Source: Takakia lepidozioides (Eukaryota; Plantae; Bryophyta). Taken from it: DNA of 64,000 nucleotides. A program made the position numbers and the translations under genes. Every line of letters begins with the position of its first letter. Position 1 is the stretch's first letter. Below the pieces are notes generated by a model. That model had not been told where the DNA came from, made no database searches, and saw only the letters and a list, made by a program, of their open reading frames with translations. The stretch spans positions 35,650,001 through 35,714,000 of the forward strand of contig CM060732.1 in NCBI GenBank assembly GCA_030704615.1. The letters run 5' to 3'. This document shows positions 1 through 57,349 of the stretch, one piece after another.

Positions 1-18
1 CAAATGACTTCATTTGTC

Positions 19-103
19 TGTCGTGCGCATACATATCGCTACACAACTACATCGCTGTCCAAACCACACCATATATATATGCACAATAAAGTAGTCTGCC
101 ACA
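19..103 (-). repeat. Terminal repeat A, outer copy (85 bp, TG..CA)
   Basis: Direct repeat of 463-547 with 2 mismatches. Confidence 0.95.
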
Positions 104-105
104 AT

Positions 106-460
106 TGATTGAGAAAGCTAAGAACACACACTCTCAACACAAGAAATATGAAATCCATCGCTATCACTCTTTGAAATAGTAGTCGAGCCAGGGGCACCCC
201 AAGCTATGGGGACTCCACCCCACAACAACCTACACTCCCATCATGAGTACACTCAGATCTAAACGCATGCAGGAGCTCGGTCGCGCAGGCTCAACTCGAG
301 AGAGATGAGCCACGCGACTGCCGCTCTCGTGAAGATAAGGCCGTTTAGGTGTCAAACTAAACTTGACACCTGATTTAACACTTGACCTAAATCCAAGTGT
401 TAAATACAAATAACTAGCTTTATTCTAGTTGTTTTCACACTGTGCTTATTTAACTTGACA
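106..460 (-). repeat. Terminal repeat B, 3' copy (355 bp, TG..CA)
   Basis: Direct repeat of 18950-19304. Confidence 0.95.
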
Positions 461-462
461 AC

Positions 463-547
463 TGTCGTGCGCATACATATCGCTACACAACTACATCGTT
501 GTCCAAACCACACCACATATATATGCACAATAAAGTAGTCTGCCACA
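463..547 (-). repeat. Terminal repeat A, inner copy adjacent to the PPT
   Basis: Direct repeat of 19-103. Confidence 0.95.
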
Positions 548-549
548 AT

Positions 550-560
550 CGCCCCCCTAG
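550..560 (-). promoter_or_regulatory. Polypurine tract
   Basis: Minus strand reads CTAGGGGGGCG-AT-TG into repeat A. The equivalent tract lies at about 51413-51423 in the relative. Confidence 0.8.
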
Positions 561-806
561 CTGGTGGGTAGGTCCCTCTACCTCCAGATAGCTACAAGAC
601 GTAATAGCCATAGCCGTACTAAGTCCTCTATCACTGTCCCTATCGTACTCAAACTCTATAGACCAAGAGGCCGGGTACAAGAGTAGCCCCATCGTTAGTC
701 GCCGTCTTGCAATCTGTGAACTTGAGCCAGGACTTCGTGTATTCAAGGTATCCTGTAGCTGGGCCTTGCGTTGCTTGTTAGCCTTCCATGGTTGTATCCA
801 CTCCCA

Positions 807-2270
807 CTATCCAATGCATTGTGGACATAACTAATCCCCATCCGGAACCATCTCAAGAGGTGGAGTCAAGCATCCCATATGCCAACCTCTAGAGCATCGA
901 TCACACACCAGCATTGTGGCTGCCCCTTTAGCAGACCCACACAACATGCACCTCAAACCTGTAGATACCACTGCCAGGTTTGGGTCAATCTTGCCATCGA
1001 CATTCGGAAGGTGACATGGCGCACAATTACGCACATGGTCCTTCCAAGTTATGCCATCCTGACCCTCCAAGACCAAGACGCCTGAGGGCAAGACCTCTCG
1101 AACCCTCAAAATAACACGTCCTGCAGTCACATCCAGGGTCGTAGCAGCAGTCTGCTGCAGATAGACATAGTCACCAGGGTTGAATCTCCGAACCCCAGGA
1201 CGATAGCCCCCACCACGTATGGTAGCATACCTCAACGTATCACGGTGTTGTGCAATGGCAAGGTTCTCGAAAGCCATGGGCATGACTCTCTTGAACAACT
1301 CTACACGCTGCTCACATGCATGTGCCCACACGTCCGGATCGTCAAGGTTAAGAACTGTAGCAGCTTCTCTGCGAATGGATGTAGGCAAATCCGGCTCTCG
1401 GCCAAAGAGAAGAAATTATGGTGAGAAGGAGGCAAGTGATGCTTGCTTGCTGAACCTGTAGCCCATGGCTAACCAGAGTAACTGAAGGTCCCAATCTCCT
1501 AGGTGTCCCTTCTGCAAGCCATACTTGCGCAAACCCCTCTTTACTGTCTGAACAACTCTCTCTGCCAAGCCATCGGCTTCAGGATGATCCCGAGAAGTGG
1601 TGCGGTGGTCTATCAAGGCCTTGTCACACAAAGCCTGAAACTCCCCCAAGAACTCTCTCCCTTGGTCCGTGAGTACCTCAGCTGGGGCACCGAATCGGCT
1701 AAGCACACAATCCAAGAATGCATACGCAGCTCCCTCACTAGCCTTATCAGGCAATGGAACCAATTCAATCCACTTGGAGAAGTGCTCCACCATCACCAAC
1801 ACGTACTTGTTGTGGCGCATGGTCAGTGGCAACGGCCCTGCGAAGTCAAGACTCCACCTGTAGCCCAATCCCATGATCGGAAGAGGGTGCAATTGTGGAG
1901 TAGGGGCGTTGAATGAAGCACGCACCCTGTCACACACCATGCACCTAACCACAAATTGTTGCACCTCTGTGTGCATACCACGCCACCAATACTGCCCCTG
2001 CAGTAGACTATGAGTGCGTCGCACCCCAAAATGCCTCAACTCCTCATGGGCATGCCGCACTAACCGTGCCCGCTATGTTGGGTGAGGCACAATCCTCACT
2101 CGACCATCCTCCCACACTCGGAGCAGGTGTGTCCCCTCCCACTTGAACCTCTTGGCTCGTTGTAGGATCCGATCCCTCTCCTTGGTAGTCACAGTGGCTG
2201 TAGTGTCTCCAGTGCGGAGGTAGTCCAACACAACTGAATCCTCATGTATATCTTTGGCGCCACCTTGCTC
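807..2270 (-). pseudogene. Integrase (H2C2 Zn finger, rve DDE core) with C-terminal PHD finger
   Basis: HEELRHFG..CMVC, WSLDFAGP, VLTDQGREF, DGLAER; then CMLC..VCDRCSRGWHMGCLTPPL..(W>stop)LCPQC. Stops at 2073, 1416 and 831. Confidence 0.93.
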
Positions 2271-3946
2271 ATTGCTGGCCTCAGGGTCCTCAGATACTTG
2301 ATCTACAGTCATCCCTGTTGCAGGTCCAACCTGGCCTTCCGCTGCCAAGATACACAGAAATGCAGATGCATGCCATCCGGGCACCATCTCCTCGTCTGTC
2401 TCACCATGCCACCGAGCTCCAGTGTCATCCTGCTGGCTCGTGCATGGATTGCGACTCAACCCATCTGCATTGCGATTGACCAAACCCGGTCGATGCACCA
2501 CCTGAAAGTCATACTCTTGAAGGATGAGTGCCCACCGTGCAAGCTTCCCCGTAAGCTTGTCTGACTCCATCAACCACTTGAGTGGTTGGTGATCCGTGAC
2601 AAGGGTGAAGAGATTGCCGTATAGATAGCACCGGAAGTGTGCCACGGCCCACACTACAGCTAAGCATTCTCCCTCATATGAGCTATACTTAGACTCTGCA
2701 GCATTGTTTGAGCGGCTAGCATAAGCCACTACGAACTCTCTTCCCTCATCATCCACCTGTGTGAGCACCGCTCCAAGCCCCAGCATGCTCCAATCGTATG
2801 CAGCTGAAAAGGACGCCCCCTGATAGGTCATCTCAAGATGGGCACCGAGGTCAACCTCGCCTTGAGCTCTTGAAAAGCTTGTTCTTGCTCATCTTCCCAC
2901 TGCCACTCCTGGTCCACCTTGGTCAGCTTGGTTAGAACCTTTGCAATGGCACTAAATCCCTTAACAAACCGTCTGTAATAGTTTGCTAACCCCATGAAAG
3001 CTCGAACTCGGCTCACATCCGTGGGGCGTGGAACCTGTGCAATGGACTCTACCTTAGTCTGCTGTACCCCCAATCCTCCAGGATATATCATGTGACCCAG
3101 ATACTCAATCTGGTTGTGGAAAAACTTGCACTTGCCCGGATGTAACTTCAATCCGTGCGTCCTCAAGCGCTCAAATACCCCCTGAAGGTGTCTCTCATGC
3201 TCCTCCACCGTAGCACTAAAGATGATGATGTCATCTATGTAGCACCGAGCAAACTCCACCCCTGCTAGAATCCTGTCCATGACTCTTTGAAACTCAGCGG
3301 GAGCGTTTTTAAGCCCAAATGGTAAGAACCGCCACTGGTATAGGCAATCCTTCCCGTGCTCATTGATCCCCCAGAATGCCGTCTTTTGCTTATCCGCCTC
3401 CTTGATCGGCAACTGGTGATATCCGGATCATAAATCCAACGTGCTAAAGACCTTGGAATGCCCAATGGCATCAAAGATCTCCTCTGGTGTCGGCATGGCA
3501 TACCTATCGGACTTGGTCTGACGATTTACAGGCCGGTAATCACCACACATACGTCTCTCCGTCCAATTGCCATAGATATCTTTCTTGGCTGGCATCACTG
3601 TGGCTGAAGCATACTCTCCACCAGAGAGCTCCACCAAACCTGCCTCCCAGAGATCTTGAGTCCTCATCTGAATCAAAGACCTCTCCATGTCACTGTATAT
3701 ATAGGGTCTCCGAAAGATTGGCGTGTCAGTGGCCAACTCAATACGGATCTCTTGACCCTTCAGTGCTCCCAAGTCCTTCAAACTGAAGGCAAAGCAATTC
3801 CTGTAAGCCCTCAGGAACCGCCGTATACGTCGTCTCTCTCCTCCGGTGACAATGGGTCCAATGTCAGGCTCCCAATTGTCCTCCGTAACTGCAACCTTAA
3901 GTCCAGTGGGCTGTAGAGGACGTGTCCCGTAGTTGCTATGCTGCAA
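2271..3946 (-). pseudogene. Reverse transcriptase and RNase H of the Gypsy pol
   Basis: RMCGDYRPVN, STLDL*SGYHQ, LPFGLKNAP, CYIDDIII, VAYASR, ECLAVVWAV, LVTDHQPL, ADGLSR; contains internal stops and frameshifts. Confidence 0.95.
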
Positions 3947-4102
3947 CCTCTTGAGCAGTACTTCCTTCCTGCTCAGTCAATGACAAGGCCTCATCCTGCC
4001 CCATCATCTCATCATTGAGAACCTCCTATCCCGAGAAGAATCCCCAACCTCATCCATCACAGCTGCCTTGGCTGCCAACTCCCTCTGAACCTCGAGCACC
4101 TC

Positions 4103-5334
4103 TCATGTGTGCCATGGATGTCTACACCCCGTGGTCCTCACCGGTTTGCCCCCACTCGCTGCCTGTACCGTCTCGGTAGGCAAAGAGACTGTCAAGGGAA
4201 GTGCACTCCGCACTCTACGTTGCTCAGCCATAGCCAAGCTGATAATCCAGGTCAAGCAATTGAGATCCATTGCTTGCCCCAACACCTGACGACGTGATGC
4301 CTCAGAAAGAGAAAGCACCGCCGTGGTCCCAGTGGAAAATCCCATAGCCCGCTCTCGCTCGTCGCATTAGGCTCCACAAACTGTTGCAACTGAGCATCCC
4401 ACAGGAGGCCAGGTCCACCATCCCAAAAAGCATGGGATCCTGGGAAGCTGAGCAGTGTAGGTAATGCTGCTTGTGGTTGACCCACCCTGTTGACCACTGC
4501 CAAAGGCGAATGGTCATCGTGTCTCACACGTTGAGACTGCCTCCCTGTGTCCAAAATGCCATCCATGGTGAGGTGTGCTGACCGTTGCACCCCATCAAAT
4601 GCACGCTTGAGCAGTGCGGGGGGCATCAAGTTAGTCCACCAAAGCCGTGGACGATGAGCCCGTGACCCCACTGCAGCTGCATCCAGCAACGCTGCTGACC
4701 CAAGCCACGACCGGACTTGATGCACACTGGCCATCACCCTGGCCCGAGAATCACCCATCAGTGGCACATTCTCCAAGATGTATGCTGGAGATACAGCTTG
4801 ATGAAGCTGCAAGTGGCGCAAAACCCGCACCATCTCCCAAAACAGACCCGTCCTCAAGTCTCGCAATCCATTGCCATGCCCGGCTGATGAATGCCCTTGG
4901 CAGGGCCAACCTGCCACTACCAGATCAATGGAGCCAACCTGCTCTAAATCCGGCGCCCCCAGCAACGAAATGTCTGCTGGCAAGGCTTGTTGGTATCCAC
5001 GAACTGTAGACACTGGCAACAAAGCAGGGTACTGCTGTACCAATTGAGCAACATGGCGCAGTGAGACGCGTCGTGCAGTCTCATCCCTCTCCACATACAG
5101 GTAACGCCTTACTTGCACACCTGCCTGTAGCACAGCAGCCAATCCGGTGCTGATCCCGCCAAACAAGTCCAGAAGGCAAATGCCTTCATTTGGATACTGC
5201 CACACAATAGGTGTGGTATCCAATGGTGACAACTGAGGTGGTCCTGGTGCAATACCCGCACTCTCCTCCTCTACTGACGGTACAAAAGCCTCTACCCAGG
5301 CTTGTTGCACCCGTTGATCAGCAACCTGCTGCAA
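4103..5334 (-). pseudogene. C5 cytosine DNA methyltransferase domain (Dnmt3-like) within the retrotransposon polyprotein
   Basis: Motif I LDLFGGIS, II YVE, IV DLVVAGWPCQ (Cys codon 4900-4902), VI YILENV, VIII AHRPRLWWTNL; after a 1-nt frameshift at about 4364, IX ERERAMGF and X RRQVLGQAM. Confidence 0.93.
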
Positions 5335-6126
5335 ATCCTTGGGGGGTTGCTATTCCATGAGCTCATGAGCTCATGAGCGGGCATGGCTCACCCATGAGCC
5401 GCAAAGTAACACACTTCGAATTTCGGCAAATTTTTTCGGGCCCAAAACTATAAAATAATCGAAAATCAAAGATTTCCGCGCTCATGCTGGAAGCACTCCG
5501 CTCATGAGTACCAGTGTACGCTCATGACTTGGAGCCCAGGCTCATGGACCGCCAGGCCAGGTCATAGAAAAACTGAATTCTGGGCAATAACGGCACCGAA
5601 ATTATCCCAGAGGCAGAGACGCAAGCGGAATTAGGATCCGGGTTTGCAGACTCCGAAAACACAATGGCGACCTATAACCGTGGATAGTACTGTTGCAGAA
5701 GTGCAGGATGGTTGGGTATAACGACGCCGTAATTGGGCACAGGAAAAGAAATAGCCGACTGAAGGCTCAGGAGTGAAGCCAACAACGGTGAAAGTAATTG
5801 GGCTCCACCAACCAAATACCCGGCTGCATCCTCCGGAATGCAGGCGATAACGGCGCCAAAATGGGCCCCGAAAACCAAATACTTGGCTGAAGCTACCGGA
5901 GTGCAGCCGATAACGGCGCCGAAATTGGGTCCGGAAACCAAATACCCAGCTGAAGGCTGGGGATTGCAACCAATAACGGTGCCGAAATTGACCTGCGGAA
6001 ACAAAATTCTCGGCTGAAGCTTCCGTACTCCATCCAATAACGGCGCCGAAATTGGGCTCCGGAGAGCAAATACCCGCCTTACGGTAAGGGAGGCCTTGCT
6101 CTCATTTTGCTCTTCACTCTTCTCTG

Positions 6127-6726
6127 TTGTGCCCATCTCCTCCCTGCTTTGAGTTCGTGCTATGTCGTGAGGCCATGTCGTGCCCGAATCACATCTATCG
6201 ACGCCAGACGGGAGTTATTTTCCCGAAAGCAGACGACATCATTGTTTTCCTGGATGTTTACAGGGACGATCCTCGACTTGTCCAGCTGAGAGCAATGGAG
6301 TTTCTTCCAGGATTGCACGATTCTCCTGGACCCCGGCTGGGGAGCAGGTGGTTCCTACGCATCATGGACCTGGACTTTCCGCATGAGTGGGAGCCGAACA
6401 GATCACGCACAGCGTTGCTGTATCGCTGGAATTGTTGCGAGTGGACGTATAATGAGTGCATAGGTGAAAACTTTACGCGTGGACGGACTGGCTCGGAAAG
6501 TGGGGACATTCTCTTCAGTTATGAGGATGAGGAGGAGGGGAACACAGGGCCCACTGTGAAAATGTCCTTCTACCAAGGAGGCGCTATCGATAAACACGAC
6601 ATCCTCGTTAATTTCAACCGGGCGACAGAAACCACTGACATTTTGTTCAAATATAGGCACCCGGTCATTGAGGAGGTCCTTGAGAGGCCAGTTAGAGTTC
6701 CTTCTTCTTGGGCGAGGGGACCATAG
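6127..6726 (+). CDS. Hypothetical protein carried by the MULE-like element
   Basis: 199-aa open frame with protein-like composition; no recognised motif. Confidence 0.4.
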   Translation: MCPSPPCFEFVLCREAMSCPNHIYRRQTGVIFPKADDIIVFLDVYRDDPRLVQLRAMEFLPGLHDSPGPRLGSRWFLRIMDLDFPHEWEPNRSRTALLYRWNCCEWTYNECIGENFTRGRTGSESGDILFSYEDEEEGNTGPTVKMSFYQGGAIDKHDILVNFNRATETTDILFKYRHPVIEEVLERPVRVPSSWARGP

Positions 6727-7408
6727 GTCTTGCATGCTAGAGTAGACATGTTTCGACTCGCCGACACTCATGGCACATACATTTTCATTCAGAAATCAAG
6801 CAGCTTCCCTGTGCCATATGGGAATATACATGCTTGGATAATCTTCTGTTAAGGTTTTTTGCAATTCACTGCCAGTATGCTGGGACGTGTCCTTTGTCGT
6901 ATGGATTGCTGTTTGCACAAGGTGCAGTATGCAAATGCTGGAATGTGCAGTAGGACCCTTCCCACTGGGACACAGAACTAGCAATCTTGTAAAGGCATCA
7001 CATTTGCAGAACAGTAACAATGTATTTGTAGCAAATTGGAGTCTTGTCATAAAGGTGGACGAAAACGCCAGGATGGGCTGCGAAATCACTACAAATTGAA
7101 TGAAGAGCAGTAACAAGGAAGCACTATGCAGTACACAGACCATAAACGGTGCTGAAATAGGTCTCAATGCCCGTTAATCTCCACACAATGTATGCTTTAC
7201 TCGGATCCATTTGTAGACAACCAAAATAAAAAAAGCATGCGCATGCCATTCATGGCCAAAAACCACATTCTCATGTATTGCGGCACCGAAATTCACATGT
7301 AGCCATGGCGATGCGGCACCACCAAGTGTATAATTCCTCACAAAAAAATAGGGTGCAAGAAGATGAATGTAATATAATTGCCACTTTCTCCTTCCCGAAT
7401 GTGGAATG

Positions 7409-7828
7409 TCAAGCAGTCCGACCAGTATCCTGCCGTAGGGCCTTGTACAGCTCGTTGAAACTCAGTGTTGGAGCATGGATGAAGACGTCCACTGCGGATA
7501 TGCAACTCATGCGCTTCAGAAAAATGTAATAAAGGTGTTTGCAGGGGACGTATGCTGCATTCTTCGATTCCATAACAAGGAAGTCCTCACAGTTGCAAGC
7601 TGGGTACTGTGAAACCGTGATTGTATACACGACACTGCGCGCAGCAGACCCGGCTGTTGACAACTGAAATATGCGCCCCATCCCGGGGTGAGGAACATCC
7701 CTGCAACCTTGCACTATGCAGGGCATTGCAATAGCGTTGGCCATCCTGGTGTCGTTCGCCTTTGTTGGTGGCCGCCGTCTTTTCAGTTTCCCCCACAGAT
7801 GGGTGGGCCAAGCTGCGGGGTCACCCAC
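7409..7828 (-). CDS. SWIM zinc-finger protein fragment
   Basis: YTITVSQYPACNCEDF..PCKHLYYIF fits CxC-n-CxH. Probably continues upstream (7821-8060) across a frameshift. Confidence 0.75.
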   Translation of the reverse strand: MGDPAAWPTHLWGKLKRRRPPTKANDTRMANAIAMPCIVQGCRDVPHPGMGRIFQLSTAGSAARSVVYTITVSQYPACNCEDFLVMESKNAAYVPCKHLYYIFLKRMSCISAVDVFIHAPTLSFNELYKALRQDTGRTA

Positions 7829-8149
7829 CGGTATGCGGGGCGAAGAGCTTCTCGTGGGAGGAGGATGACGACTGGGAATTGGATTTCGTGGAACGTATTT
7901 TAGCTTTCAGAGAATCAGGATGGAAGTTGACGTTTACCCAAACACGGGAGTCCATGTTGAAGACGGGACCTCTCGGTACGCTCCGCAGCGAAGTCCTGCA
8001 GTGAGAAGAGTGTGTCCTACCTAATAACACAAATGATTTTCTGGAGGATTCTGTATCCAACAGGATGGGTGATCAGTGCACGTAAAGATGAAGGTGTGTA
8101 ACGTACGTTACAAAAACGGACGACAACATCAAGTTCACATCGGATATTT

Positions 8150-8601
8150 GGTGCCTGAATTGTAATGTACAACCACTTGGGCTACAATAAATCAGGCCTT
8201 CCCATGAATTTCGGCACCGAAATCTGGATGAACATCTCTGTCATGTAACAACTTTGGAAGCCAGGGGATGAATTCCGGCGACAGAAATCGTAATTTGTTC
8301 ACCTCATGAAACTGACCAAGCACCCAACGGATGGATTTCGGTGCCGAAATTCGGATGAACATCTTCTTCATCAAATTGTTTCTGCACATGAGGGTTGAAT
8401 TTGGATGCCAAAATACGGATGAATGTGTTCCTGATTACAGTCGTGATTCACCACATGTCCGGATATTGGTGCCAACATCCAAATGACAGTAATCCTGAAT
8501 CGGCAGAATGGATGTATTTCGGCGCCGAAATTCATTCTTCTCTTTTTCCGACCCTAATTCTGCTGCCCTGTGGATGGATTTCAGTGCCGAAATTCATCTG
8601 A

Positions 8602-8645
<44 letters not shown>

Positions 8646-9840
8646 CTTTGCAACAGATGAACTTCGGCGCCGAATCTCATCCAAGTACTCCCTTCTAATT
8701 TTCCTTTTTCTTCGCGAGCAATGAATTTCGGCACCGAAATTCATCCGAAGTCCTCCAAAAAAAAAAAAATTCTTCGCGAGCAATGAATTTCAACGCCTAA
8801 ATTCATCCGAAGTCCTCCCCAAATTTATTTTTTCTTCGCGAGCAATGAATTTCGGCGCTGAAATTCATCCGAAGTCCTCCCGAAATTTTTTTTTTCTTCA
8901 CGAGCTATGAATTTCGGCGCCGAAATTTAACCGATTCCATCCCTCCAAATTTTTTTCAGGGTTTGAGCGCCGGATTTCGGCGCCGAAATTCATCCAATGC
9001 CCTCCCTCCAATATTTATTTTTCTTTGAAAGGGATGAATTTCGGCGCCGAAATTCGTCCAAACCCGACACTTATTTTTTGCTTCTGGATGATATAATTTT
9101 CCGTAAATCGTTGGAAATACCCCGTTCCGACGAAGATAACAGGAATATTCTGCATTTAATGGAGAAATCGGCATATTGAACCCCTTCTGTCAAAATTAAT
9201 TGCATTTTAGCCGTTTTTTTCATTTGAAACTGACAGTATCCATTAAGTGGTCTTTTTCGCACGGGACGTTGCCGCACATAAAGTATAATTTCGGCGCCGA
9301 AATTATAGTTAAATGTCCACAAATGGCAAGTCCAACAGGCATGGACAGCATCCGTCAGGGGCAATGATGGCGGCAAAGCATAGCATGGTGCCGATTTAGT
9401 CTTCGCTCTAGATGAATTTCGGCGCCAAAATATGGATGATTTCACCTCGTCTACGCGCGGATGGAGATATTCGTAATGAATTTCGGCGCCGAAATATGGA
9501 TGAAATGTGCCCAAGTGCAGCCGTTTCCACTGTCTCGGAATTAATTCCGGCTCCAATATCCCACTGACAGGTTTGCTCATGACGGATGAGGACTTGGGAA
9601 GCGATGAATTGCGGCGCCGAAATTCGTAAGTTTGTGTATGAAAGCACTTGAATAAGATGAATTTCGGCACCGAAATTCATCCATCCGCTGATGAAACGTA
9701 CCGACCTGACTGTTGAATGTCATAGGCAGGGGATTTTCATGGCGGTTGGGTTTCATGATGTGCGGATATTTCATTCAATGCCGGCTGCTCCGAGAACAGC
9801 ATCCGATGAACGGAAGGTATTTCGGTGCCGCAATTCGGAT
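8150..9840. repeat. Dense array of the palindrome (G)AATTTCGGCGCCGAAATT(C)
   Basis: Many irregularly spaced copies, e.g. 9036-9055 and 9657-9682; further copies at 5590-6060 and 12245-12525. Confidence 0.9.
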
Positions 9841-10347
9841 AAACTGTCTTGTACTGGTGGCTGGAACTGGCACGCGTCGTGTTCCAGTCGACTTCATCCG
9901 TGCGAACGTGTCAGGGGTCACAATCTCTTCATCACCCATACGGCAAAAAATGTTGGACGGTGGCAACGCTTCGGGAGACGTGACTGCTTACGCATCTGCT
10001 CGTGCATAGTGGTTGCATGTTCCACCGCTTCGCTCTCTCGCTCCTTGCCCTTCTGCAGTGACGTTCTCCTGCGTTTCCTCTCCTTATGCGGCATAGTGGT
10101 AGCATAGAGTTTGTAGAAGGTCAGGCGACTCCGGCAAAGAGAAAGAGGACGTGGGATTTTGGGAAGCCGCCGACGACACGACTTAAGCTCCGTTTCATGC
10201 ATGAAATGCAGACCTCGTTATCCGGAGACTCGGATCGCCCACCAGTGAGAGATTCGTGCTTTGCGGATGTGAAGCACTCCATACGCAATATTCCTTTTAC
10301 ACCTTTTTTTTTGCGTGCAGTGTCTCATGTTTTCCTGTTTGTTTGAC

Positions 10348-11998
10348 ATGGAAGCTGGGGAGGGATCGCAGGGGGGCGAGGCAACACAGTCAACTTTGGA
10401 TACTCCTGCCCGGGTGCTGCGCTCGAAAGGTGGAAGTGCATCGAGGCAGGCGAGTCCTCATTCAACACCTCAGATATCGCCTCAGAAAAGCCCACCTAGA
10501 GTTCGGAAGCCGAGGAAGCAGAAGGAGCCCATGGCTTCGCCAGTAAAACCCCTAGGGCGACTGGAAGCGGAGATATTGGGTTTGCAGTCAATTTCAGAAA
10601 CGGATGCGGTGGAGGCCGCTGGAGATGTGGGAGTTGGATCTGCAGAAGGGCGGCCCATTGAGCTGACAGAAGGAGAGGACGACAACGTGGTACGACTTGG
10701 CGACGATCAGAACCTGCTGGAGCTTGCGGAGGAGCAAAACCTCCAGGACATTTCCTTCTCTACAGACTCGTATCTTTCAGGCATTTTGCTTTGTGAAGGA
10801 ACATTCGAAATTCATATTACGTGAAGCAGGAAGACTTGTTGATTCCACAGTTGATCCACTAGAGTATAACGTCCTGTTCAACCATGTGGGAGAGAAGGAC
10901 ATTCTTTGTGATTTGTCGGGCAAGCCATGGAGGTATGGCAGGACCAGGAGTCCTGCATTCATCCAGACGCTCATGGAAACATGTACAGATGTTGAAGGCA
11001 GGGTCCGCGACGTCATTGCAAATACAGGTGAGAACGTTAATTGAATGCGGCACCGAAATTGACACCATTTCCGTTTGTGTATGTTTGCTTGTGCGAGGAA
11101 GCGACTCATTCTTGAGTTTGGCTGTGGTTGTGTCGTATGAATTCGCAGGTGCCTGTATGTGGGCGGGAAGGATGTCGAACCGATTTGTGTTCTCATTTGA
11201 GGGGGATACGGCCTTGTACGATTACAATTTGGCGGGCCTTCAGCGTCTGCCTCCGACCGAGGATCCCAAAAACGTAGAAGATGACGTGGAAGGGGAGGAG
11301 GAAGATGAAGAGGAGGAAGTCCAGGAAATTCGTTCGATGCAGGGGCGCCCGAAGCCGCTTCCCCCAATGCCTGTCTTCGAGTGAGTTGCACCATAGTAAG
11401 TGTATTGGTTTCGGTTGTAGGGACCATGCAACCTGCCGATGATTCCCTGTTTGAATTCTCTAATGTACTTCATTCTATGTTTGTGCGTACACTCAGCCTT
11501 GCAGAGTCGTCCGACGAGGAGAAGCTGGGAGACTTGCCCGAATCGGACCCTGTTGCAGAGGAGGAGACAGAATCGCATCGGCCATTCTTTGCCAGAAAAT
11601 CGTTTCTCGCGAGTCCCCAGAAGCCCTTTTTTCTACCAGCCTATGCAGACACGGCTGCCAAAGAAGCCATCAGGAGGGAGGATAGGCCTACTCGGTTAGA
11701 GCAATTGACATACGGGAATGAGAAGAGAATTATAATGAGGCGTGAGGCCAAACATAGAATTGTGAAAGGCAGAGTAGGGAAGTTCGTAATAGAATCCGTG
11801 TCCGAGAGCGAGGGGAATGTTGAGGACACCTCCGCACCCAGGTGGACAGTTCCGGTTGGTGAGGATGGTATTTTTGAGGGGAGGGCTTCTCAGAGTAACA
11901 GCGGTAGCGGCAGTGCAGGTTCGGAGGCAGGTGGAAGGCAGCCATCCTTGCATGAGGCCGGGGATGCATCGGACAGTGATAGCGGATCCTCACCATAG
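10348..11998 (+). CDS. Probable spliced or degenerate acidic low-complexity gene within the MULE-like element
   Basis: Consecutive coding-like frames separated by short GT-AG segments (about 11028-11148 and 11381-11420); one apparent frameshift near 10760. Confidence 0.4.
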
Positions 11999-12690
11999 CG
12001 AAGTCTCATTTGGATCCTTTTGTTGTACAGTTCTGAAACACTTAATGAAAATATTGACGATTTGAAAAATCATTGTGTTCAGACTGCTTGTCCGATTCCC
12101 TACATTTCTTCCGCCAACCAAAATGTATAATAAAAGCAGAAGAGACGCAAACTTCAGTGAAGAACCCTACAAGTAATTTATGCACACCATCGAGCCGAGA
12201 ACTTGAAGCCATGAAAACCCTGCCGTTTCTAACATTCCTATTGGGAAATTTGGCGCCGAAATAGCCCAGTGCGCGCCTTCGTTATATGGGCCTCAAAAAT
12301 TCCACGGATGAATTACTGTACCAAAATATCGCGATGGAAGCCTTTAGCACAAGGCACTTCAGCACATTCCACTTGGGTATTTTGGCGCCCAAATAGCCCG
12401 TTCTGCGCCATTAAATACCGCACTATATCACATTTTAAGAGGTAATTTCGGTGCAGAAATACCCCGGTGGATGTCTTCAAAACACCATTTTAGCATACTT
12501 CTCTTGGGAATAACGGCGCCGAAATACCTCATTCCGCATCCTGGACCAGGAGAAACAGACCCTATTACCGAGGTAAGAGGACATAACACCGTCAATAAAG
12601 GCAGGAAAATTCCAATTCCGCAGATGCCCGCTCATGAGCTAATAGGCTCATAGGCTCATGGGCTCATGCGCTCATGAAATAGTAAACCTC

Positions 12691-13600
12691 AAATCCTTGC
12701 TCGTACCCCACAATGGAGTGTGAGCAACCAGGGCAGGCAACTCCGCCATACCATGCATGTCATCCTGTTCTGCTGGAGGTGGCACATCTTCTGCATGGGC
12801 ATTGCCTTCCAGCAACTCTCCAGGCCAACTAATTGCAGCTGTAAAGGCGGCTAGTGTTGGCATGTTGCCTCGCTGGGCAGCCGCAATACCCCCAATGAAT
12901 GTCACAGGGAGCTGTGCACGACGACCATCCCCTGACTGCCATCCAGGCCTATAGAATGCTGACTCCTCCCAAAAGTCCAGGGTGAAGCCCATGGGGTATA
13001 ACATTGCCTTACCAACGAGGACATCGTAAGAAACCGCGTCTGTCACAATGGCCTTGGCTCGCATTACTGAGCAATCGATAGGATGATCCGGCTACAGTCT
13101 AATGGCCAACTGATGCCGTGTCATGCCCCGAGCCTGCTCTGATCCTCCCAGAGATGTCTGTATCTGGAAAGGACAAGGCTCCATATCCGCCTCGATAAGG
13201 CCCAAACCTGCAATAGCAGCTCTGCCCAACATCAGTGGCTGAGCTCCCGAGTCCAACAAGACCCGCAGTGGCCGATACTTCTTGCCTGCCGGTCCACTCA
13301 AAGAGAAAATATCATCCTGGTTGTCTAACAAGACAACTCCAGGTGTCACCATGGCGCGCTCAAAGGCTGGCCTAGCTGGCAGCTCCGTCAACCTGGCAGC
13401 TGCAGCTTGCCAGGGCCCAGCCGTGGCAGTCTTGACCCTCAAATCCAAGGATCCCTCTGCCACTACACCTTCTACTAACTCCGCAGAAGATGAAGTGACC
13501 TCCCCACTCTCACAGAGTGTTGCTGCTAGTCTGAACACTGCAGCTGGTCTTACCCCGGCGTCGCAATCATGGTTGCCGAGAACAGTGGGGCTTGACACAC
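12691..13600 (-). pseudogene. Aspartic protease and linker of the polyprotein
   Basis: VLLDSGAQPLMLG ... YDVLVGK; stop at 13092. Confidence 0.85.
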
Positions 13601-13635
13601 AGAGGTGGCTGCCCCCAATAACACACCAACTACAC

Positions 13636-15492
13636 TAGCCTTGGTAGCAGGTGTCAGTGCTGCACGTGTAGCTCTCCCCAATGGCATAGTACCCTCCGCC
13701 TCGGTAACAGTCGGGCGAGAACTAAGTGCCATGGATGGCGTTGACATTGTCTCCGCCAAGGTGAATGACTGAGGCAGCCTTGCCTGACGGCTTGCCTCCC
13801 CACGTTGTGGATCCAACTCCACCTCTGCACCTCGTGGCTCAGGAACTCGTGCTGCTCCTCGAGTCACGGCTGCAGCAGACTCCACCTGCTCTAGTGGTAG
13901 TGCTGCTCCGCACATGAATCCCATGCCTCCCATATCTCCTCCCTCAGGAGTAGGAGGTGGACCATCCGCCTGGGAGCCGGTACCGCCTGAGCTATAGCCA
14001 TGGCAGCGAGCCTCTGCTCTAGTTGCTGAAGCCGATTGGCCATGCCTTGGTCAACACCCTGACCTCCGCGTCCTTGGCCATGTGGAGCTTGCCCTTGGCC
14101 TGCACCTCGTGCCCGACCACCTCGTCGTCTTTGGGCTGGTCCACCTCGCCCCCGGCCACCGTTATTCCCTTGGAACTGGCCTGGGCGCAACTCAGGATGC
14201 AAGTCATAACACTGGGCATCTCCATGCCCATACTTGCCGCAATGCCCACACTGCAACTATGCAGGCTGTGCTTGTGCCGGCCTTTTGCCACTCTCTGGGC
14301 AATCTCTCTTGACATGGGGTCCTCCACATGTCCAACATATCACCCCTGGTTGCTGTTGGCCTGCAAAAGATGCCACGGGCCTTTGCACCTGAGGTCCCTT
14401 GTAAGCTCCATGGAACTTGGGCTGGGCAACCTTGCCCCCCTGACCACGCTGTTGGGCAGTCCTTTGTGCCTGTGGGCTGACAGCTGTGCCCCGTGCAGGC
14501 ATGTCCTGGCCAAATCCAATTGTAACAACTCGCTCCTCCACCATGTTGAGCTCAATCCGCTCAGCCAGCAGAAACACATTTGCTAATGTGGGTTGGGCTA
14601 CTTGTAACAGGGTTGCATCTCGCACCCTTCTCTTGAGCTCCTTGTCCAGAATTCCATACCAAAACTGGATTGCCTGAGCTTCAGTAACCCCTTGGGTCAC
14701 ACTTATCAAGCGCCTCATATGAGTGTACGCCTCTCGCAGACTCTCACTAGGTTTGCGCTGGAAGTCTTGCAAACTTCGCAGTTTCTCTGTCCGTATACCT
14801 TGGTAGTTCCTCCGCAACTCCTGGAAGAACTCCACCACCGGGTTGAATCTAGGCACATGTGTTGTAGTCGTGGGAGGAGGAGTAGTAGCACTTTTTGAAC
14901 TGGTACCACCTACAGAAGTACCAACACTACTTGCTCCACTACTAGTGCTGGCAGTGTGAGCTATTGGTACTAATGCAGCTACTGGTCGCGTCGTGCCTCG
15001 AGTAATGGAGACGTAGTCAGGTGAACAATACATCCTCCACTCCTCAATCTCTGCTTCATGTCCTTGCCTGAACTCGTGGTAATCGTCCATAGGCGGGCCT
15101 TCCAAATGCTGGAACAGTCCCTTCCACGCCATGAATGGGGTGAATAGCTGTGGATTGCGCATCTGCTACAAATCACACCAGCTGTCGAACTCCTGGATAA
15201 AGTCATCCAACTCGATTGTGCCCACAGCTCCAGAGTACCTACAAGGCCCCTTGGTAGCTCCATACATCTCCTCCATGTCGTCCCACAACAATGGCGAATG
15301 AAAGTGCATACCTGTTGATGAAGCCTCCGAGTCTGTGTCTGACTCTACAGTAATTGAGGGTGGCGGTGAAGGCGGTCTGAACCGAATACCTCGTCTTGTG
15401 AACCCACTCTCACTGTTACTGCCTGTAGCCGTACTCCCCTCAAAACCCTTGGGTAACTCCGTAATGACACTCACAATGTGCACCTCCTCCAC
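13636..15492 (-). pseudogene. gag with two zinc knuckles
   Basis: Retrotrans_gag-like LQDFQRKPSESLREAY; CWTCGGPHVKRDC and CGHCGKYGHGDAQC; stops at 15166 and 14257. Confidence 0.85.
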
Positions 15493-16011
15493 GTGACACT
15501 ATAAGGCTCTAGTACTAATCTAATAGTGACACGGGTGGGCACCTGTTGCAGTTTAAGGGTCATATCCCAATGGCCCAAGGCACCTGCACTTGCATCCACC
15601 GCAAGAACTCCTATGGTTGGCTGGTCATCAACCCAGCCTCACCATAGAAGAAACACTGGTGGTCTTACTGGTCATCACTCCAGCCTCACCACCGACAGCA
15701 TACTCTAGGATTGACCGGTGATCAAATCCGGCCTAATCCCTATGAAAGCAAGCACCCACACAAAACCAACATGGCGCACAGTCAAGCATGCAGGTGTTGG
15801 GGGGGATCCAAACACAAGAAATCAAAACATCAACACCCCCACACCAAAATCCAGCTGCAATGCTGATCCTGCAGAATATCCCAGCCCAAAACCCCGGACT
15901 GACTGGCCTCCACCAAGAGAGGCTTTGGCAACTACGAGTACAAGGTAATGAAAATAGTACAGAGATGGAGGGGAAGAATAGAAGCCCGCCCAAGCAAGAT
16001 CTAATCCTGAT

Positions 16012-16761
16012 CTATGCTATCAACTTCCAGACTTCTCTCAAAGTGCCTCGCTCTGCTTGATGATAAGGTGTAGGAGGTATATCTATGTCCAGAAACCTGC
16101 CACTAACCTTGTCCCAAGCTACAGTAGCTTGCTCTAACCAACCCTCCTCCTCTTTCTGCCAGGTAGAGACAAAGCAACACTCTGCTATCTCCCGCTCACT
16201 GAACACTAAAGAAAACAAAGGTAGGGTTTGATAGTCTCTCAACTCGAAAACTTTGAGATGGTTGCGGGTGTCCTCATTGCGAATGACTGCATCTCCTTCA
16301 AACAGAACAAACTTGTCCTCGCTAATGAACCCCCGCTCGTGGTTGCCTTGTGCAGAGCGTGTCCGGCTGCAACGTTGTCTGATTGCACAAACTTGTGTAG
16401 CTTCTGCTCCTCTGCTCCAGTACACCACAACCTTGTGGCTGAACACCTTGGTCCCCGGGGCTGTCTTTGGCTGTGTTCCAAGCCTAGCTTTCACCCACTT
16501 TGGTATTTCACCTACAGCTGCAGAACTGCTAGCTCCAACAGAGTTCTGACTGTCCAAGGCGTTATTGAGGCCCTCAATGCCAACTACAGCAGTATGTTGT
16601 CTACTGCTAATGCCTGACTCCCAGTATGCAATCAACTCGTCCAACTGTTCTCCACTCAAATCAGTCTGAGTTCCTTGGGAAACATAAATCCTGTCCCCTT
16701 GTGTGCACAGGCTAAGAGAAGAGACCTGCCCTTCAATTACGTCCTCATTTCCCCCAGCCAT
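16012..16761 (-). CDS. Additional intact ORF (249 aa, unknown function) upstream of gag
   Basis: Uninterrupted ATG-initiated ORF in element sense orientation. Confidence 0.6.
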   Translation of the reverse strand: MAGGNEDVIEGQVSSLSLCTQGDRIYVSQGTQTDLSGEQLDELIAYWESGISSRQHTAVVGIEGLNNALDSQNSVGASSSAAVGEIPKWVKARLGTQPKTAPGTKVFSHKVVVYWSRGAEATQVCAIRQRCSRTRSAQGNHERGFISEDKFVLFEGDAVIRNEDTRNHLKVFELRDYQTLPLFSLVFSEREIAECCFVSTWQKEEEGWLEQATVAWDKVSGRFLDIDIPPTPYHQAERGTLREVWKLIA

Positions 16762-18128
16762 GCAAGGAGGACATCCACAGATTTGTCTCTCAAATAGACC
16801 AGAACAGGTTCTAGAAACAAAATTGTGGATCTTTCACGGCACACTCACACTCTAAAAATTCCATAGATTTTTAGCAGAGTCCCAAAAACAAAAACCAGGT
16901 CTAGCTAGGTAGATATCCCCTTTCTGCAGCTATCCCCCCAAAAATTGAGTCAATTTGACAAAGTTATGACCAACCAGGCTCTAAATCATTTAAATTAGAT
17001 CAAAGTTTTTATTTTTATAACACCAAAACGTTCCCGCCATTAAGAACCGTTCCCAAGTTTCATTTGTGGTTACGGGTGCACCACAGGCTCGCTCTCTTAG
17101 TGAGCTGCTTTGCTCCAGCGACGACTCTCGAGCTCGGGTGTATGGTTGTGGCGATGGCGATGGCCTGTGCAGCGTCAGGCATCTGTTTCCCGTGATGCAA
17201 GTACTCGAGCCATCCCTAATGTAGGGACAAGCCCTGATGATACTCTGTCAGAACCTGGTGGGCAGCTGCCATCTGCACTTGCTCTCTCTTCAGACAATCT
17301 TCGGACCTAGTGTCAAATGTGGAAGTGGTGAAGGAGTTTATTGACAAAGGCAACTGTGTTGGACTATCCAGAGAGTAGAGAGTAACCAGATCAGCTTCGT
17401 CATTTTGTTGAAGCTTGGAGCATAGATCTGCATACTTCGATAGGGCAAGGCACTATCTCAATTCAGGTAGCGATCATGTTCAATGTAGGAGCATACCCGA
17501 TAGCGGTATACTGATCCACCGCAACATCCCCGTTGGACTTGTCTGCAATGTTCCCTGCAGCTTTGCAAGCTCGTGTACCGAGTGTCTGGCCAAGTTGGGC
17601 AGCAACAACGTTCAAACTGGCCACAAAATTCAAGGTTGGATAACCACTCACTCCATATCTCGGTGACAGTCTCCTTCATTCATCTGTGATTTGGGAAAGA
17701 AAAGCGGCTGCAGATCTCCTAACAGCTCGTTGCTGGAAACCATTATGTCCCCCAAATGGATGCAAAGGTCACAGGTCTCCTCTGTCTCTGAGCTATGTTG
17801 GGTGGACTTGCTGGAGGGAAAGGTTGCTGGTCATTCCAACTGACACCAAGCATTTCAGTTCAGCCTTCTACCCGGCCGGCGCTGCTGTTGCTGTCCTCCC
17901 AGCCAATGTCCCCAACCCCGTGCTTGCAACCCTACGCCACCACGCTACCTCCCTGCAGCTCCAACACATGATTAGAATCCCAGTTCTTCACATACACCGC
18001 CATCCTCCGAATTCAGATGAATACCAGCATACTGGCTCGCACATTGCACATATTGCGTCTTCCACCGAAGATAGAATAATTATTGGTGAAGGTGAGTATC
18101 AATCGTATTCCCTGTCTCTTGGCTTCAG

Positions 18129-18735
18129 CTACCACAAAGCCGAGTGCATCCCTTCCATTTCACCATGTTTGCTTGAGCGTGGAGCGGGAGCTTGAGCGTG
18201 GAGCTTGTAGAGCGGGAAAGCTTGAGCTGAGCAGATGAGGTGTTTCCTCACTTCCTTGGTCATAACTGTCATATAATGAACACTCCATTGGCCGTGTTGA
18301 AGAAGCTTAATCCATGCAGCTTCAGCAGCACTCAGGTAGATAATCCGCATGTTGGGTTGAATGTTTTCAACACTGTAAGCGGGCTTTTTGCATCGTTACT
18401 CTTCTTCGATTCTTTCGAGATAACCCGTGATGCGGAGCGCGATGTTGTGCCATGGCTGCCAGAGCTCCCTTTCCCGTACACTCTCCACTGCTCCTCACCT
18501 TCTTTCTACAAATCGCTTCTCTGTCTATATTGCTTTAACAAGGTCTGGATTTGTCACCATTGGACTGACCAGGTACAGCAAAGGCTATAGAGCAATCTGC
18601 CTCTTGCGGTGCTCCTGTACAGTTGCAGTTATAGCGACGCACCGAGTGCCCAACTTGCAACAGCTTTGCAACCGCAAGCGTTTGTTCCCTTGTCACAACC
18701 ACACTCTTGCATGCATGTTGCATACAGTCTTCCAC
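18129..18735 (-). pseudogene. Possible decayed second extra ORF in the element leader
   Basis: Coding-like frame broken by TAG/TGA/TAA codons, each reachable by a single C>T change. Confidence 0.3.
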
Positions 18736-18935
18736 CTCCGGAGAAGAAGTCCAGGGACAGAGTTACGGTTGTCAGCAGCTACCAACAGACACAGTCTTCC
18801 TTACATTTGCGCATCATCTTGCTGCTCCACCAGCCTTGTCACAAACATAATCTACCATAATTTTCTTCTGTCACTTCCAAAACAAAAAACCACAAGTGCT
18901 AAACTAAACTCACCTCTGGCACTCACAGATGCAAG

Positions 18936-18950
18936 TCATCTCTCTCGAGT
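18936..18950 (-). promoter_or_regulatory. Candidate self-priming primer-binding site
   Basis: Perfect 15-nt reverse complement of 19138-19152 within repeat B; no TGG-type tRNA PBS here. Confidence 0.75.
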
Positions 18951-19304
18951 GATTGAGAAAGCTAAGAACACACACTCTCAACACAAGAAATATGAAATCC
19001 ATCGCTATCACTATTTGAATTAGTAGTCGAGCCAGGGGCACCCCAAGCTATGGGGACTCCACCCCACAACAACCTACACTCCCATCATGAGTACACTCAG
19101 ATCTAAACGCATGCAGGAGCTCGGTCGCGCAGGCTCAACTCGAGAGAGATGAGCCACGCGACTGCCGCTCTCGTGAAGATAAGGCCGTTCAGGTGTCAAA
19201 CTAAACTTGACACCTGATTTAACACTTGACCTAAATCCAAGTGTTAAATACAAATAACTAGCTTTATTCTAGTTGTTTTCACACTGTGCTTATTTAACTT
19301 GACA
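18950..19304 (-). repeat. Terminal repeat B, 5' copy
   Basis: Direct repeat of 106-460; not accompanied by an A copy. Confidence 0.95.
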
Positions 19305-19501
19305 TGTCCACTGGCTGTTCCTCTTGTAAAAGTTATTCACTCCAGGAAAAACAACTATGTATTTGCTGACAGGTGCAGAAATTCAATGAAAGAATCAGGT
19401 AATCTTAAGTGGACTGCTATGTTCATGGTTTTCCACAACTGAAGTAGCTACTGCTCAGTGATGGCTCCCCAAATACTACAGACTTGACGTAAGAATCTTA
19501 C

Positions 19502-24500: not shown

Positions 24501-27500
24501 ATGTTAACAAGTAATATATGAGGAGGGTCCTTTGAAAGACACGGTTGTTTGTTATTTATATGTGGAATTCTGGTTGTGCACTACATGATAGATGCAACGC
24601 AACAACATGGGTTGGCTGTTGTGGGGATACTTCTCAAGCTTTTGTAGCACCTACAGCAGGTAGCAGGGTTTTGCTTTTCTTCCTGCTTTTGTTGTTTTTC
24701 TTTGTTTTTCTGTCTTAAGTTCGAGTAGTTTAAGCAGTCAATGAAAGGTGCTTAAGGTTTGCAAATAATTTATTTATTCCGTAGGATGGAATCTTCTCAG
24801 ATTCAAGATTGGATTGGATTGTAAGGAATCTCTGCATTTCAGTATGGTCTGTGATTGATCATGCTTTTCTATACCTTCTCTCTTGCTTTTGTTGCTTTTC
24901 TTTGTTTTTCTGTCTTGAGTTCGAGTAGTGTAAGCAGTGGAAGGACAGAAGGTCAAGTGCTTAGGGTTTGCAAATAATTTATTTATTCCATAGGATGGAA
25001 TCTGCTCAGATTCAAGATAGAACAACAATAGAACAATAGTGGAAAGAAAAGGGACGATTCTTCATGATTAGTTTGTTTCTTAGCTTTGGCTAGTGTTAGG
25101 GAAGTGACGTGCGGTTAACGCCTTTGAAGGTGGGGTAACTTTATTTTCATACTTGCCCTGATCTAGACACCCAATGACAATGCAAATCAATAATTCTATT
25201 GCCGTCGCAAGTGTGCACCGCAGCACTATAGTTCATTACTGCATGTTAGCCACACCTTACCGTGGGCCCAGGTTATGTAGATTCTTGGCACCTTGACTTC
25301 AGAATCTTTGCTTGACTATGACCTGTTGTTCTACGAGCCCACATACTCATGCAGGTATGCTTTAGGACCGTGTAGGCGAGATTCTTCCGGAGCTGTTAGG
25401 GTTTCGTGCTAAAATGTGTTTTGCTAGCTCTTTGAATGTCCAAGTTTTCCAGACTTAGAGGACTATTATTTTCTTAAGGTCGGTCAGATTGCGGCAGATG
25501 AGGGCAGGTTTAAAGTGTTCTGCGTTCTTGTCTTCTTTTCTCTTCGGTGTGTTACGTTTTCCCAGTCTATATACATTGGCTGTCACTGTTGTGGTTCTTG
25601 CCAAGATCCAGGTAGGGTACATGTATTGGTTGTGCAATTGTTGGTGTTATGATGATTGGCTGTAAGGCCAACCAGAATCTTTTGTCAATATGACCATGGT
25701 GGGTTAAGTTTATGTCACCGTACAACTTCTCCCAGTAAAGCCTCTTCTGATCCCTTACAAGCTGATTGACCTCTTTACGCAGTTGGTAGTATCTAGACCA
25801 GAGCATTTTTTCATCTTTGATATTACAGCAGTCCTTATAGAGCGCCTGCCTCTCAGCAATCTTGAGCTTGATCTCATGGGTCCACCAATTTACTGCTCTA
25901 CCACAGATAATTAGTTTCCTTCCATGACTCTATCAGCAGCAGAAGTGGCAACGCTCTCCCAAGAATCTACAGCACCTTCTACCTCCCTCCTTGTATCACC
26001 ATGGGCAAGAGGAGAGATCTTGAAGTGACTGTGTAAAGTGTGGGAGGGTAAAAAGTGGACTAGAAAGTGTTAGCAATTCTTGTTCCTGGGTGAGTCCTTG
26101 GCAGACACGGTTGCTTGTTATTTAGATGTGGAATTCTGGATGTGCACTCAGGGTTGCGCTCTCTTGGCAACTAGGTGTGGTGTAAGTTTCTTCGCTGTGT
26201 TCACCCATCAAGGTGTCAAGCTAGTGCATCACGTGATGCAACTGTCGCATGTTGATGTCCAATCCAGCACCTTGGACATTTTATTTTGTCATTTCAGTGC
26301 ATGTTCCACTATGTTGAAATCTTGTTTTGTTTTTACAAGCACCTGATCCTTGTGGTGGTCTGAGTTTCTCAGGGCTCTGCGGCCTGAGTTTGCTGATAGT
26401 GAGGTTCACGTACTTCGAGTATGTCATCACCAGATCATTTGCTCCTTTTGAAGAGGAAATGATAATATTAGTTCTCAAATGCCAATGAGCAGCTTGTCTT
26501 CTAACCCATTCCTTCGTCAGGTACCCCCAGAGTTGACAATACTTTATCCATTCGGAAGGACATAGTTGAGCAGCGTGTGCAACTTTGTGAAGTGGATGAG
26601 CTGCGGGGATTGTTGGAAATGGAATTGAAGGATGGCTTACGATTTCCCGTTTCTTTGAATATGTGGAACTCTTTGCCGACGAACAGGGACAAGTTGTTCA
26701 AACTAGCTGGACCTGATGAAGAGTGTTATAAGATTGTTCCACTTGTGAATGCTATTGTGGACCCTCCAATGCCTGCACCCACTGCTGATACAGAAGATTC
26801 TTTTCACTACCTTTGGGACACTGTTATTGATGAATCACTTAAGTTTTTCTTTGATGGCCCTTGGCTGGCAGAGCGAAACAAGTCTGGTGAAGGGAGTAAT
26901 AGTGGAACAAGGCCCCACAAGGTCGTTAGGTTTGGTTTCCGGTTCTATGCTTTGTGGAGAGGGGAAGAGAAAGGCCCTACAACTGCTGGTGATCCAAGAA
27001 AGGAATTGATTTCGAAATTGGACTGGACGTATAAATATCTCCCCTTTCTCATGGCGTACTATGCGAGGGCAGCCCTAGTGACATTCTGTGTGCTATATGT
27101 GGTTGTGGATCCACATGGAGGATCCATGAACATGTGCCGTGATCTCATTCAATTCAATATATCAAATGCAAAGGAACGACTTAAGCTTGTACTGGCCTGC
27201 ATAACTATGGCGAAGTTGCTGAAAACAATGGAAGAGGTTTGCGAAGGAAAGGATGAAGTGTCGGATATGCCTCTCATACGGAGGAACAGTGGAAAAGTTA
27301 TTCGTCCATGTGGGAGGAAGGTAGAGAAGTCCTATCCAAATGAGGCTTTCTACAGGGAAGTTGTAGCCATCTATGAGGCGACGACATCTTGTCCAAATGT
27401 GGAACTTTTTTTGCATAGAAGGGATTCAGACCGAACTATTGTGGTGCAGAGGGCTGTGGTTACAAAACCAAAGAACCATGACGAACTGATGACCTGTCTC

Positions 27501-27863
27501 CGATGTTTGTGTGAAGCACTGCAGTGGTTGCACAGAAAAGGACTCGCGCACAGAGACATCAGGTGGGAAAATGTTCTTCGCGACAGGAATAATGCTGAGA
27601 AATGGGTACTAGTGGATCTTGATGAGGCAATAAAGACCGATCAGTGCTTCAAGCTCCACCGTCTAGATTCCAATTCACATGCTCCAGAGATGACAGTTGG
27701 GCCTCATGATACCATGGTTGACATCTGGGGCATTGGGTACCTTTTGTCTACTTCAAATATTATTCTGGATGCGAAGCTTCTGGGTTTGATGGAGAAATGC
27801 AAGCATCAGGTGCCAGACCAAAGGCCAACTGCAGCAGAGTGTCTGGAGTTGCTTGATGCATGA
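21534..27863 (+). CDS. Crinkler-like protein: helical/SAM-like header, REase-fold domain, protein kinase (exons 21534-21777 and 26521-27863, about 528 aa)
   Basis: In-phase GT-AG intron; TEDSFHYLWD..RPH..WRGEEK..LPFLMAY; HRDIRWENV, LVDLD, HAPE, DIWGIG. Confidence 0.8.
22599..25930 (+). repeat. Near-tandem duplication of about 1.47 kb (22599-24067 and 24474-25930) in the intron, including LINE linker fragments on the minus strand
   Basis: High nucleotide identity; duplicated ORFs 22905/24774 and 23704/25567. Confidence 0.9.
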
Positions 27864-38835: not shown

Positions 38836-38874
<39 letters not shown>

Positions 38875-40708: not shown

Positions 40709-40745
<37 letters not shown>

Positions 40746-55295: not shown

Positions 55296-55334
55296 TTACC
55301 CCTTCCCCCCCTCAAAAAGCCGTGTCCTCACGGT

Positions 55335-57089: not shown

Positions 57090-57349
57090 ATCGACAATGG
57101 TTGTAGGGTATGTCTTCTTGTACTTACTGGAGCTGTTTGTCCCGTAGGTTATGTTTACTCCCGCAAGGTCCCCTAAATCCCCAACGTCCCGATCTTATCA
57201 GATGAACCATCACGAATCTTATGTGTCTTATATGTTAATTAATTACTTCATTGATATGATAATTACTACCATTGTGCATTTCCTTGCTTCTTGTTGCTCT
57301 GTTCTGGTCTGCCTTGCTATGCTTCACTGAATTGTTATTTGTGTCCACC

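Follow-up and report, generated by a model that had tools for sequence, protein, structure and literature searches.

The DNA analyzed here is a 64,000-nucleotide stretch of the moss Takakia lepidozioides (assembly GCA_030704615.1, contig CM060732.1, positions 35,650,001 to 35,714,000; hereafter the window), in which positions 19 to 19304 hold a Ty3/Gypsy-like long terminal repeat (LTR) retrotransposon whose repeats are split into two modules, A and B. The element lies on the minus strand, and all window coordinates are numbered on the plus strand. Its order is 5' B, primer-binding site (PBS), internal region, polypurine tract (PPT), AT, inner A, a 2-nt spacer, 3' B, AT and outer A. The 5' B (18950-19304), whose first bases TGTC form the 5' terminus, is abutted by the PBS (18936-18949). 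At the other end, the PPT (558-550) and its AT (549-548), together spanning 548-558, are followed by inner A (463-547), the spacer (461-462), the 355-nt 3' B (106-460), an AT (104-105) identical to the dinucleotide after the PPT and probably marking the join of two complementary DNA (cDNA) ends, and the 85-nt outer A (19-103), whose last bases GACA form the 3' terminus. A plus-strand TGTC lies beside outer A (15-18) and beside 5' B (19305-19308). Where A meets B, a strandless palindrome of two abutted attachment (att) ends, GACA-NN-TGTC, spans 457-466; it reads GACA-AC-TGTC here, and GC is the most frequent spacer in the family. An initial annotation had reported B at the 5' end only, A-B-A after the PPT, AT at both places and the palindrome, and its coordinates and layout were reproduced base for base.

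By the positions of the PPT and PBS, the working LTR consists of A, spacer and B (547-106, 442 nt). The inserted copy therefore corresponds to an ordinary AB..AB element (dots denote the internal region) that is circularly permuted, with its opening at the A/B junction and the spacer lost. Between the two A copies there are 2 differences in 85 nt, and between the two B copies 3 in 355 (5 of 440 together); such divergences fit a single age (Fisher p 0.25). The window contains GACA-NN-TGTC at just two places, one per family copy; the second copy is described below. Over its 14 nt the PBS is perfectly complementary to a site inside B (19139-19152), and it is predicted to be self-priming.

The initial annotation had noted TGTC on both sides of the element. 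The possibility that this TGTC is a leftover of A, which itself begins TGTC on the plus strand, is rejected by contigs from public sequencing runs that join window positions 1-14 straight to 19305 onwards with a single TGTC (six in run X1, possibly the source of the window itself, and three in run X5, from a separate study). These contigs appear to represent either alleles with an empty site or paralogues of the repeat that hosts the element, and they establish TGTC as a true 4-bp target-site duplication (TSD). A further 18 X1 contigs diverge after 19304 with low agreement (0.48), the internal junction (spacer GC) being mixed there with other sequence. Five more (four X1, one X5) continue from 19304-19307 into long tails of unrelated sequence, which is consistent with further copies that end there. 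Runs X7 and X10 did not cover the 5' end. Summed contig depth, which is not a copy number, drops at the end of the element from hundreds of thousands to about 1,700, and elements of this family are highly repeated in the host. Contigs aligned on window 1-1200 have low depth and many indels at 106-119.

The internal region matches Pfam families for reverse transcriptase (RT), RNase H, H2C2 (PF17921), rve integrase (PF00665), PHD finger and C5 methyltransferase. All coding parts are on the minus strand: the integrase, assigned by Pfam and homology (834-2072; H2C2 zinc domain, rve core and C-terminal PHD finger, interrupted by stops); RT plus RNase H, fragmented and assigned by Pfam and polyprotein alignment (2076-3976); a C5 cytosine methyltransferase domain within the polyprotein, with PCQ and ENV motifs, found by Pfam and searches (4255-5334); and a gag-protease-like region homologous to Marchantia polyproteins (12687-15276), with a zinc knuckle and an LLDSGA motif, by which, rather than by a Pfam match, the protease was recognized. 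The enzyme order, protease-RT-RNase H-integrase, is that of canonical Ty3/Gypsy elements, and this copy is disrupted by stops. Among the 116 frame segments searched, most of them from this element, no tyrosine recombinase family of Pfam was matched, and Gypsy domains account for the coding region. The Marchantia polyproteins align over gag-protease and methyltransferase and thereby expose a 7.35-kb insertion between 5334 and 12687. Placed at 5342-12689 (no strand) by a 10-bp duplication and inverted termini, this nested insertion, overlooked by the initial annotation, splits the polyprotein and lies outside the element proper, which accounts for about 11.9 kb of the 19.3 kb (the insertion for about 7.3 kb). 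It holds arrays of a short palindromic repeat, we take it to be Mutator-like from the length of its duplication, and no transposase family was found in it.

End structures across the family

A second, diverged copy of the family in the window, also on the minus strand, ends in A'-B'-A' as well (50738-51421): outer A' (50738-50913), T (50914), B' (50915-51231), a GC spacer (51232-51233), the 177-nt inner A' (51234-51410), AT and the PPT. Its palindrome is perfect (GACA-GC-TGTC), its LTR is 75-85% identical to that of the first element, and its pol (51407-54417) is 90% identical to 544-3552. The copy is broken off at 54418, and its 5' end lies outside what the window shows.

Related loci were collected by scanning metagenome contigs with an integrase alignment; the best 80 of 503 confirmed stretches formed 61 clusters, which became 59 insertion sites once L029 was split and three mergers were made on the basis of a common flank. 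Named integrase relatives come from Calypogeia, Riccia, Marchantia, Sphagnum, Klebsormidium, Haematococcus and Volvox, and a moss origin of the metagenome loci is suggested by named protein relatives. At their 3' ends, 18 sites read PPT-A-B-A-flank and 18 read PPT-A-flank. At the remaining sites the contig ends too early (11), the element is interrupted before any repeat (4), or the end is partial or unclassified (8: L010/L011, L017, L019, L023, L026/L027, L046, L050 and L063, the last probably A-only and left out of the count). All nine visible 5' ends (the window copy, L003, L006/L007, L013, L024/L038, L025, L062, L064/L072 and a second element in L047) read flank-B-PBS, none with A before B. 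Of the 34 outer 3' ends that were tabulated, 31 terminate in GACA and three in AACA, with none running on into B. A 4-bp duplication brackets the permuted ends in all seven elements with both ends testable, exactly in five (the window copy, L003, L006, L024/L038 and L025) and with one mismatch in two (L013 and L062). The split layout is thus a real, family-wide trait, and two points of the initial annotation hold throughout, namely that the element ends equal the internal palindrome minus its 2-nt spacer (34/34 outer 3' ends and 9/9 5' ends) and that TSDs should lie at the permuted ends (7/7). No ordinary AB..AB copy was seen among the classified related sites.

The self-complement of the PBS is 14 nt long in the window copy and L062, 11 in L003 and L013, 9 in L006 and 7 in L064; the PBS of L024 and L025 has no complement of 6 or more nt. 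The aberrant 3' end of L010/L011, identical in two assemblies and located 335-852 nt past the integrase match, reads A-B-PBS-inverted B (179 to 1)-GACA-flank, which suggests that the plus strand copied the self-primer and folded back, with the end again made at an att half-site. Flank comparison revealed no site that carries A-B-A in one sample but only A in a second, and the flanks of related loci held no clear solo element (L026 has a B-A piece, with a flank resembling that of L032). An exact search of the metagenome contigs for the A terminus gave no match, and no integrase relative was found in viral contigs. A 14-base junction pattern hit 108 loci in viral contigs, none similar to A or B, and these were set aside as chance matches.

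Conserved palindrome and variable B/A junction

The A/B spacer is 2 nt in all 29 junction rows (26 distinct sites), across subfamilies with LTRs that are otherwise barely alignable, and the palindrome variants are mostly C-to-T or G-to-A changes from GACA-GC-TGTC. In the five copies compared, the ends defined by reverse transcription have 0-2 contiguous matches of terminal symmetry, versus 4-5 at the palindrome. The PPT- and PBS-adjacent ends, which are the normal target of integrase, thus have little terminal symmetry left. The initial annotation had bounded both A and B by TG..CA; this is true of both window copies and fails in related subfamilies, where the A start on the PPT side lacks the terminal TG.

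The B/A junction is variable. Across ten sites of one subfamily, for which the B end was read from a single 5' copy (L062), B joins A directly at three sites, with an added AT at three, T at one and ATA at one, and the A start or most of B is lost at one site each. Junction bases track the PPT-adjacent A start of each subfamily. In the same subfamily, the inner and outer A of one element have 52 minority states in common, their distance is 0.081 within versus 0.112 between elements, and the two kinds of A show no fixed difference from each other. The conserved palindrome, the variable junction and the privately shared A states together say that the outer A and the B/A junction are probably remade from cDNA in each cycle, the palindrome being inherited.

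Integration model and alternatives

We propose, as a reasonably probable though far from certain explanation, that integrase opens the internal palindrome (GACA-GC-TGTC) located in the 5' LTR of end-joined cDNA. The RT-defined ends were likely joined into a 2-LTR circle before the cut, and integrase is the likely cutter of the palindrome, judging from the termini. The RNA would start inside 5' B and self-prime on the abutting PBS, and ordinary reverse transcription would yield AT-A-GC-B...A-GC-B. The B end would then be joined to the AT-A end, imprecisely, as the variable junctions suggest, and integrase would nick after CA on both strands of one palindrome, as the termini suggest. Such staggered nicks would leave 2-nt 5' overhangs like those of processed retroviral ends, and strand transfer would give B..ABA; nicking after CA would thus explain both the loss of the spacer and the 4-bp duplications. 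B..A copies may derive from 1-LTR circles, or from molecules cut at both palindromes. Integrases of HIV-1 (type 1 of the human immunodeficiency virus) and foamy virus are described as cleaving circle junctions of the CA-NN-TG type (PMC1905944, PMC1180852, PMC4372172), and 1-LTR circles are described as predominant for a fly LTR retrotransposon (10.1101/2022.09.25.509424).

Several observations weigh against this proposal. Among the end forms foreseen by the initial annotation, B..ABA and B..A are both normal (18 sites each), but BAB..A is missing from all nine visible 5' ends, including those of all four A-only elements in which that end can be seen. By a simple likelihood, which takes no account of assembly bias, the odds are about 119:1 against symmetric opening of a circle. 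Random opening of a closed symmetric circle is accordingly disfavored, and a site preference must therefore be assumed. The 5'-LTR site might be preferred as it would be double-stranded long before the 3' site during reverse transcription, which, speculatively, would account for the lack of BAB..A; assembly trouble at B-A-B ends could also hide some such copies. The annotation's idea of a circularized cDNA opened at the internal site is thus supported in part, by the element ends and by a B/A junction that looks new in each cycle. In addition, L017, L019 and L046 have the palindrome and no second A within the 673, 1169 and 1835 nt available, and these could be ordinary AB ends. In a smaller subfamily (five sites), the inner/outer A distance is 0.064 within versus 0.067 between elements and is uninformative. 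Later A-by-A recombination could be a source of B..A copies; the age test opposing it is weak (integrase divergence gives A-only copies no greater age than A-B-A copies, p 0.68 and 0.083). The related loci come from few assemblies and are the best of those confirmed. Finally, the circle, the cDNA and the cleavage product are all deduced from genomic copies, whose anatomy, duplications, class counts and pattern of conservation are direct observations.

The missing BAB..A form and the 18:18 split would both follow without any site preference if integrase opened one palindrome of linear AB..AB cDNA and inserted both half-sites, the free RT-defined ends being joined afterwards by host repair, a course that we regard as possible but unlikely. 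Cutting at the 5' site plus end-joining would give B..ABA, and cutting at the 3' site plus annealing across the 300-355-nt B repeats would give B..A. This course fits the junction heterogeneity equally well, and the L010/L011 end indicates that an att half-site end is possible on an aberrant molecule. However, each insertion would entail breaking the chromosome next to an arm just 85-180 bp long, and most junctions vary by no more than 0-3 nt.

Alternatively, reverse transcriptase itself could make the junction, with the plus strand jumping from the end of U5 (the unique 5' part of the LTR) onto the other cDNA end and copying on before integrase cuts the palindrome. Template jumps and untemplated additions give 0-1 nt of shared sequence or a few extra A/T, and the observed junctions have 0-1 nt shared or 1-3 extra A/T; moreover, L010/L011 suggests that the plus strand is able to copy the self-primer and switch template. 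Yet such jumping does not by itself explain the missing BAB..A and leaves the same sequence signature as end-joining, and we consider it improbable.

The repeat order is also that of split-direct-repeat elements (PMC4157794, PMC5890265), and a PAT/Ngaro-like cycle could be envisaged in which the transcript extends as far as outer A, RNA hands on the B/A junction and the circle is rebuilt from an internal A/B template. The lack of a tyrosine recombinase match in the frame segments, the presence of TSDs, the placement of PBS and PPT as an ordinary LTR cycle requires, a B/A junction that differs between close copies and an outer A that tracks the inner A make this very improbable. A one-off rearrangement, nested solo repeats or an assembly artifact, favored by nothing beyond the initial single observation, is refuted by the second window copy, the 18 independent A-B-A sites, the TSDs and the empty site.

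If opening of circular cDNA at the palindrome is correct, the family would be a natural, long-lived case in which a DDE integrase regularly uses circular cDNA as its integration substrate, a route treated as marginal for retroviruses, and split-direct-repeat anatomy could arise without a tyrosine recombinase. The defined 10-bp site and its enzyme make the mechanism directly testable. LTR finders that need two terminal LTRs, TG..CA and a TSD (as described for REXdb, PMC6317226) are expected to miss or mis-bound such elements, although contig depth shows them to be highly repeated in the host.

Known systems and neighboring features

The anatomy has been noted once before, in 2018, in Klebsormidium, a precedent that the initial annotation overlooked. 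In the legend of their Fig. 4c, de Mendoza et al. (2018; PMC5890265) describe KnitGypsy-Dnmt3 of Klebsormidium nitens as having Gypsy domains and repeats arranged as in a DIRS element, and the Gypsy domains, the C5 methyltransferase in Pol and the DIRS-like repeat order are all found in the window element. As far as that description goes, it includes no TSD, att palindrome, B..A class or integration mechanism. Two K. nitens integrase relatives (P0033 and P0054) are 53-54% identical; K. nitens is absent from the named methyltransferase matches, and the likeness rests on layout, domains and integrase. No published integration mechanism for such elements was found by title or abstract start, in a coverage that leaves out most subscription journals and Repbase Reports, where a description is possible.

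With canonical Ty3/Gypsy elements the window element shares the order of its enzymes, a PBS and a PPT that lie next to the repeats, a TSD within the usual 4-6 bp and a DDE integrase with an H2C2 domain. It differs in lacking two complete terminal LTRs (no A before B at nine 5' ends; all 34 3' ends stop after A), in termini that lie inside the LTR and in RT-defined ends that are joined and unconserved. It therefore seems Gypsy-like up to cDNA synthesis and does not appear to be a tyrosine-recombinase element. A self-priming PBS, predicted here, is also described for the Tcn1/Tf1-sushi group (PMC6317226), whose chromoviruses differ in having a chromodomain after the integrase, where the window element has a PHD finger. 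The cleavage of 2-LTR junctions by HIV-1 and foamy virus likewise involves a DDE integrase, a palindromic att-att junction and CA-3' ends (PMC1905944, PMC1180852, PMC4372172). As described there, that junction consists of ligated cDNA ends, is a side route and gives a colinear provirus; in the window family the palindrome is fixed, internal, passed through RNA and apparently the sole site used, and the copies are permuted. PAT, TOC1, Ngaro and VIPER have the repeat order X-internal-Y-X-Y but are described with a tyrosine recombinase (PMC4157794), in contrast to the DDE integrase, PBS, PPT and TSDs found here.

The integrase core (window 1419-2072) has a D-to-E distance of 35 in 71 of 74 matched homologues, with 46 of 120 unmatched. 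The corresponding distance in HIV integrase is 36, and the one-residue-shorter spacing is possibly a clade marker or linked to internal cleavage. In IS3/IS911 and IS30, which have a DNA-only cycle, a DDE enzyme opens abutted ends with a 2-3-bp spacer in a circle, and the junction is rebuilt from flanking DNA in every round, whereas that of the window family is inherited within the LTR. Structure prediction of the C-terminal half of the integrase was poor (predicted local distance difference test score, 50.9).

In the window element the methyltransferase lies between protease and RT, but relatives P0146 and P0149 carry it between RNase H and integrase; the domain would therefore seem to have moved or been gained twice. 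In L003 and L024 the 5' region is shorter than the roughly 3.6 kb found in the window copy, and upstream of gag in the latter a 273-amino-acid frame (16015-16833) has no Pfam family. By eye, the second copy seems to be inserted in the RT gene of a different LTR retrotransposon (49644-50737). The element that interrupts it (54418-57194) has an end beginning TGTCGCG, a purine tract near 55300 and a 619-amino-acid frame without a Pfam family. Elsewhere in the window are remains of a Tc5/pogo-like DDE transposase, a kinase-like frame and duplicated RT-bearing segments (29197-30585, 26505-27860 and 35680-40781).

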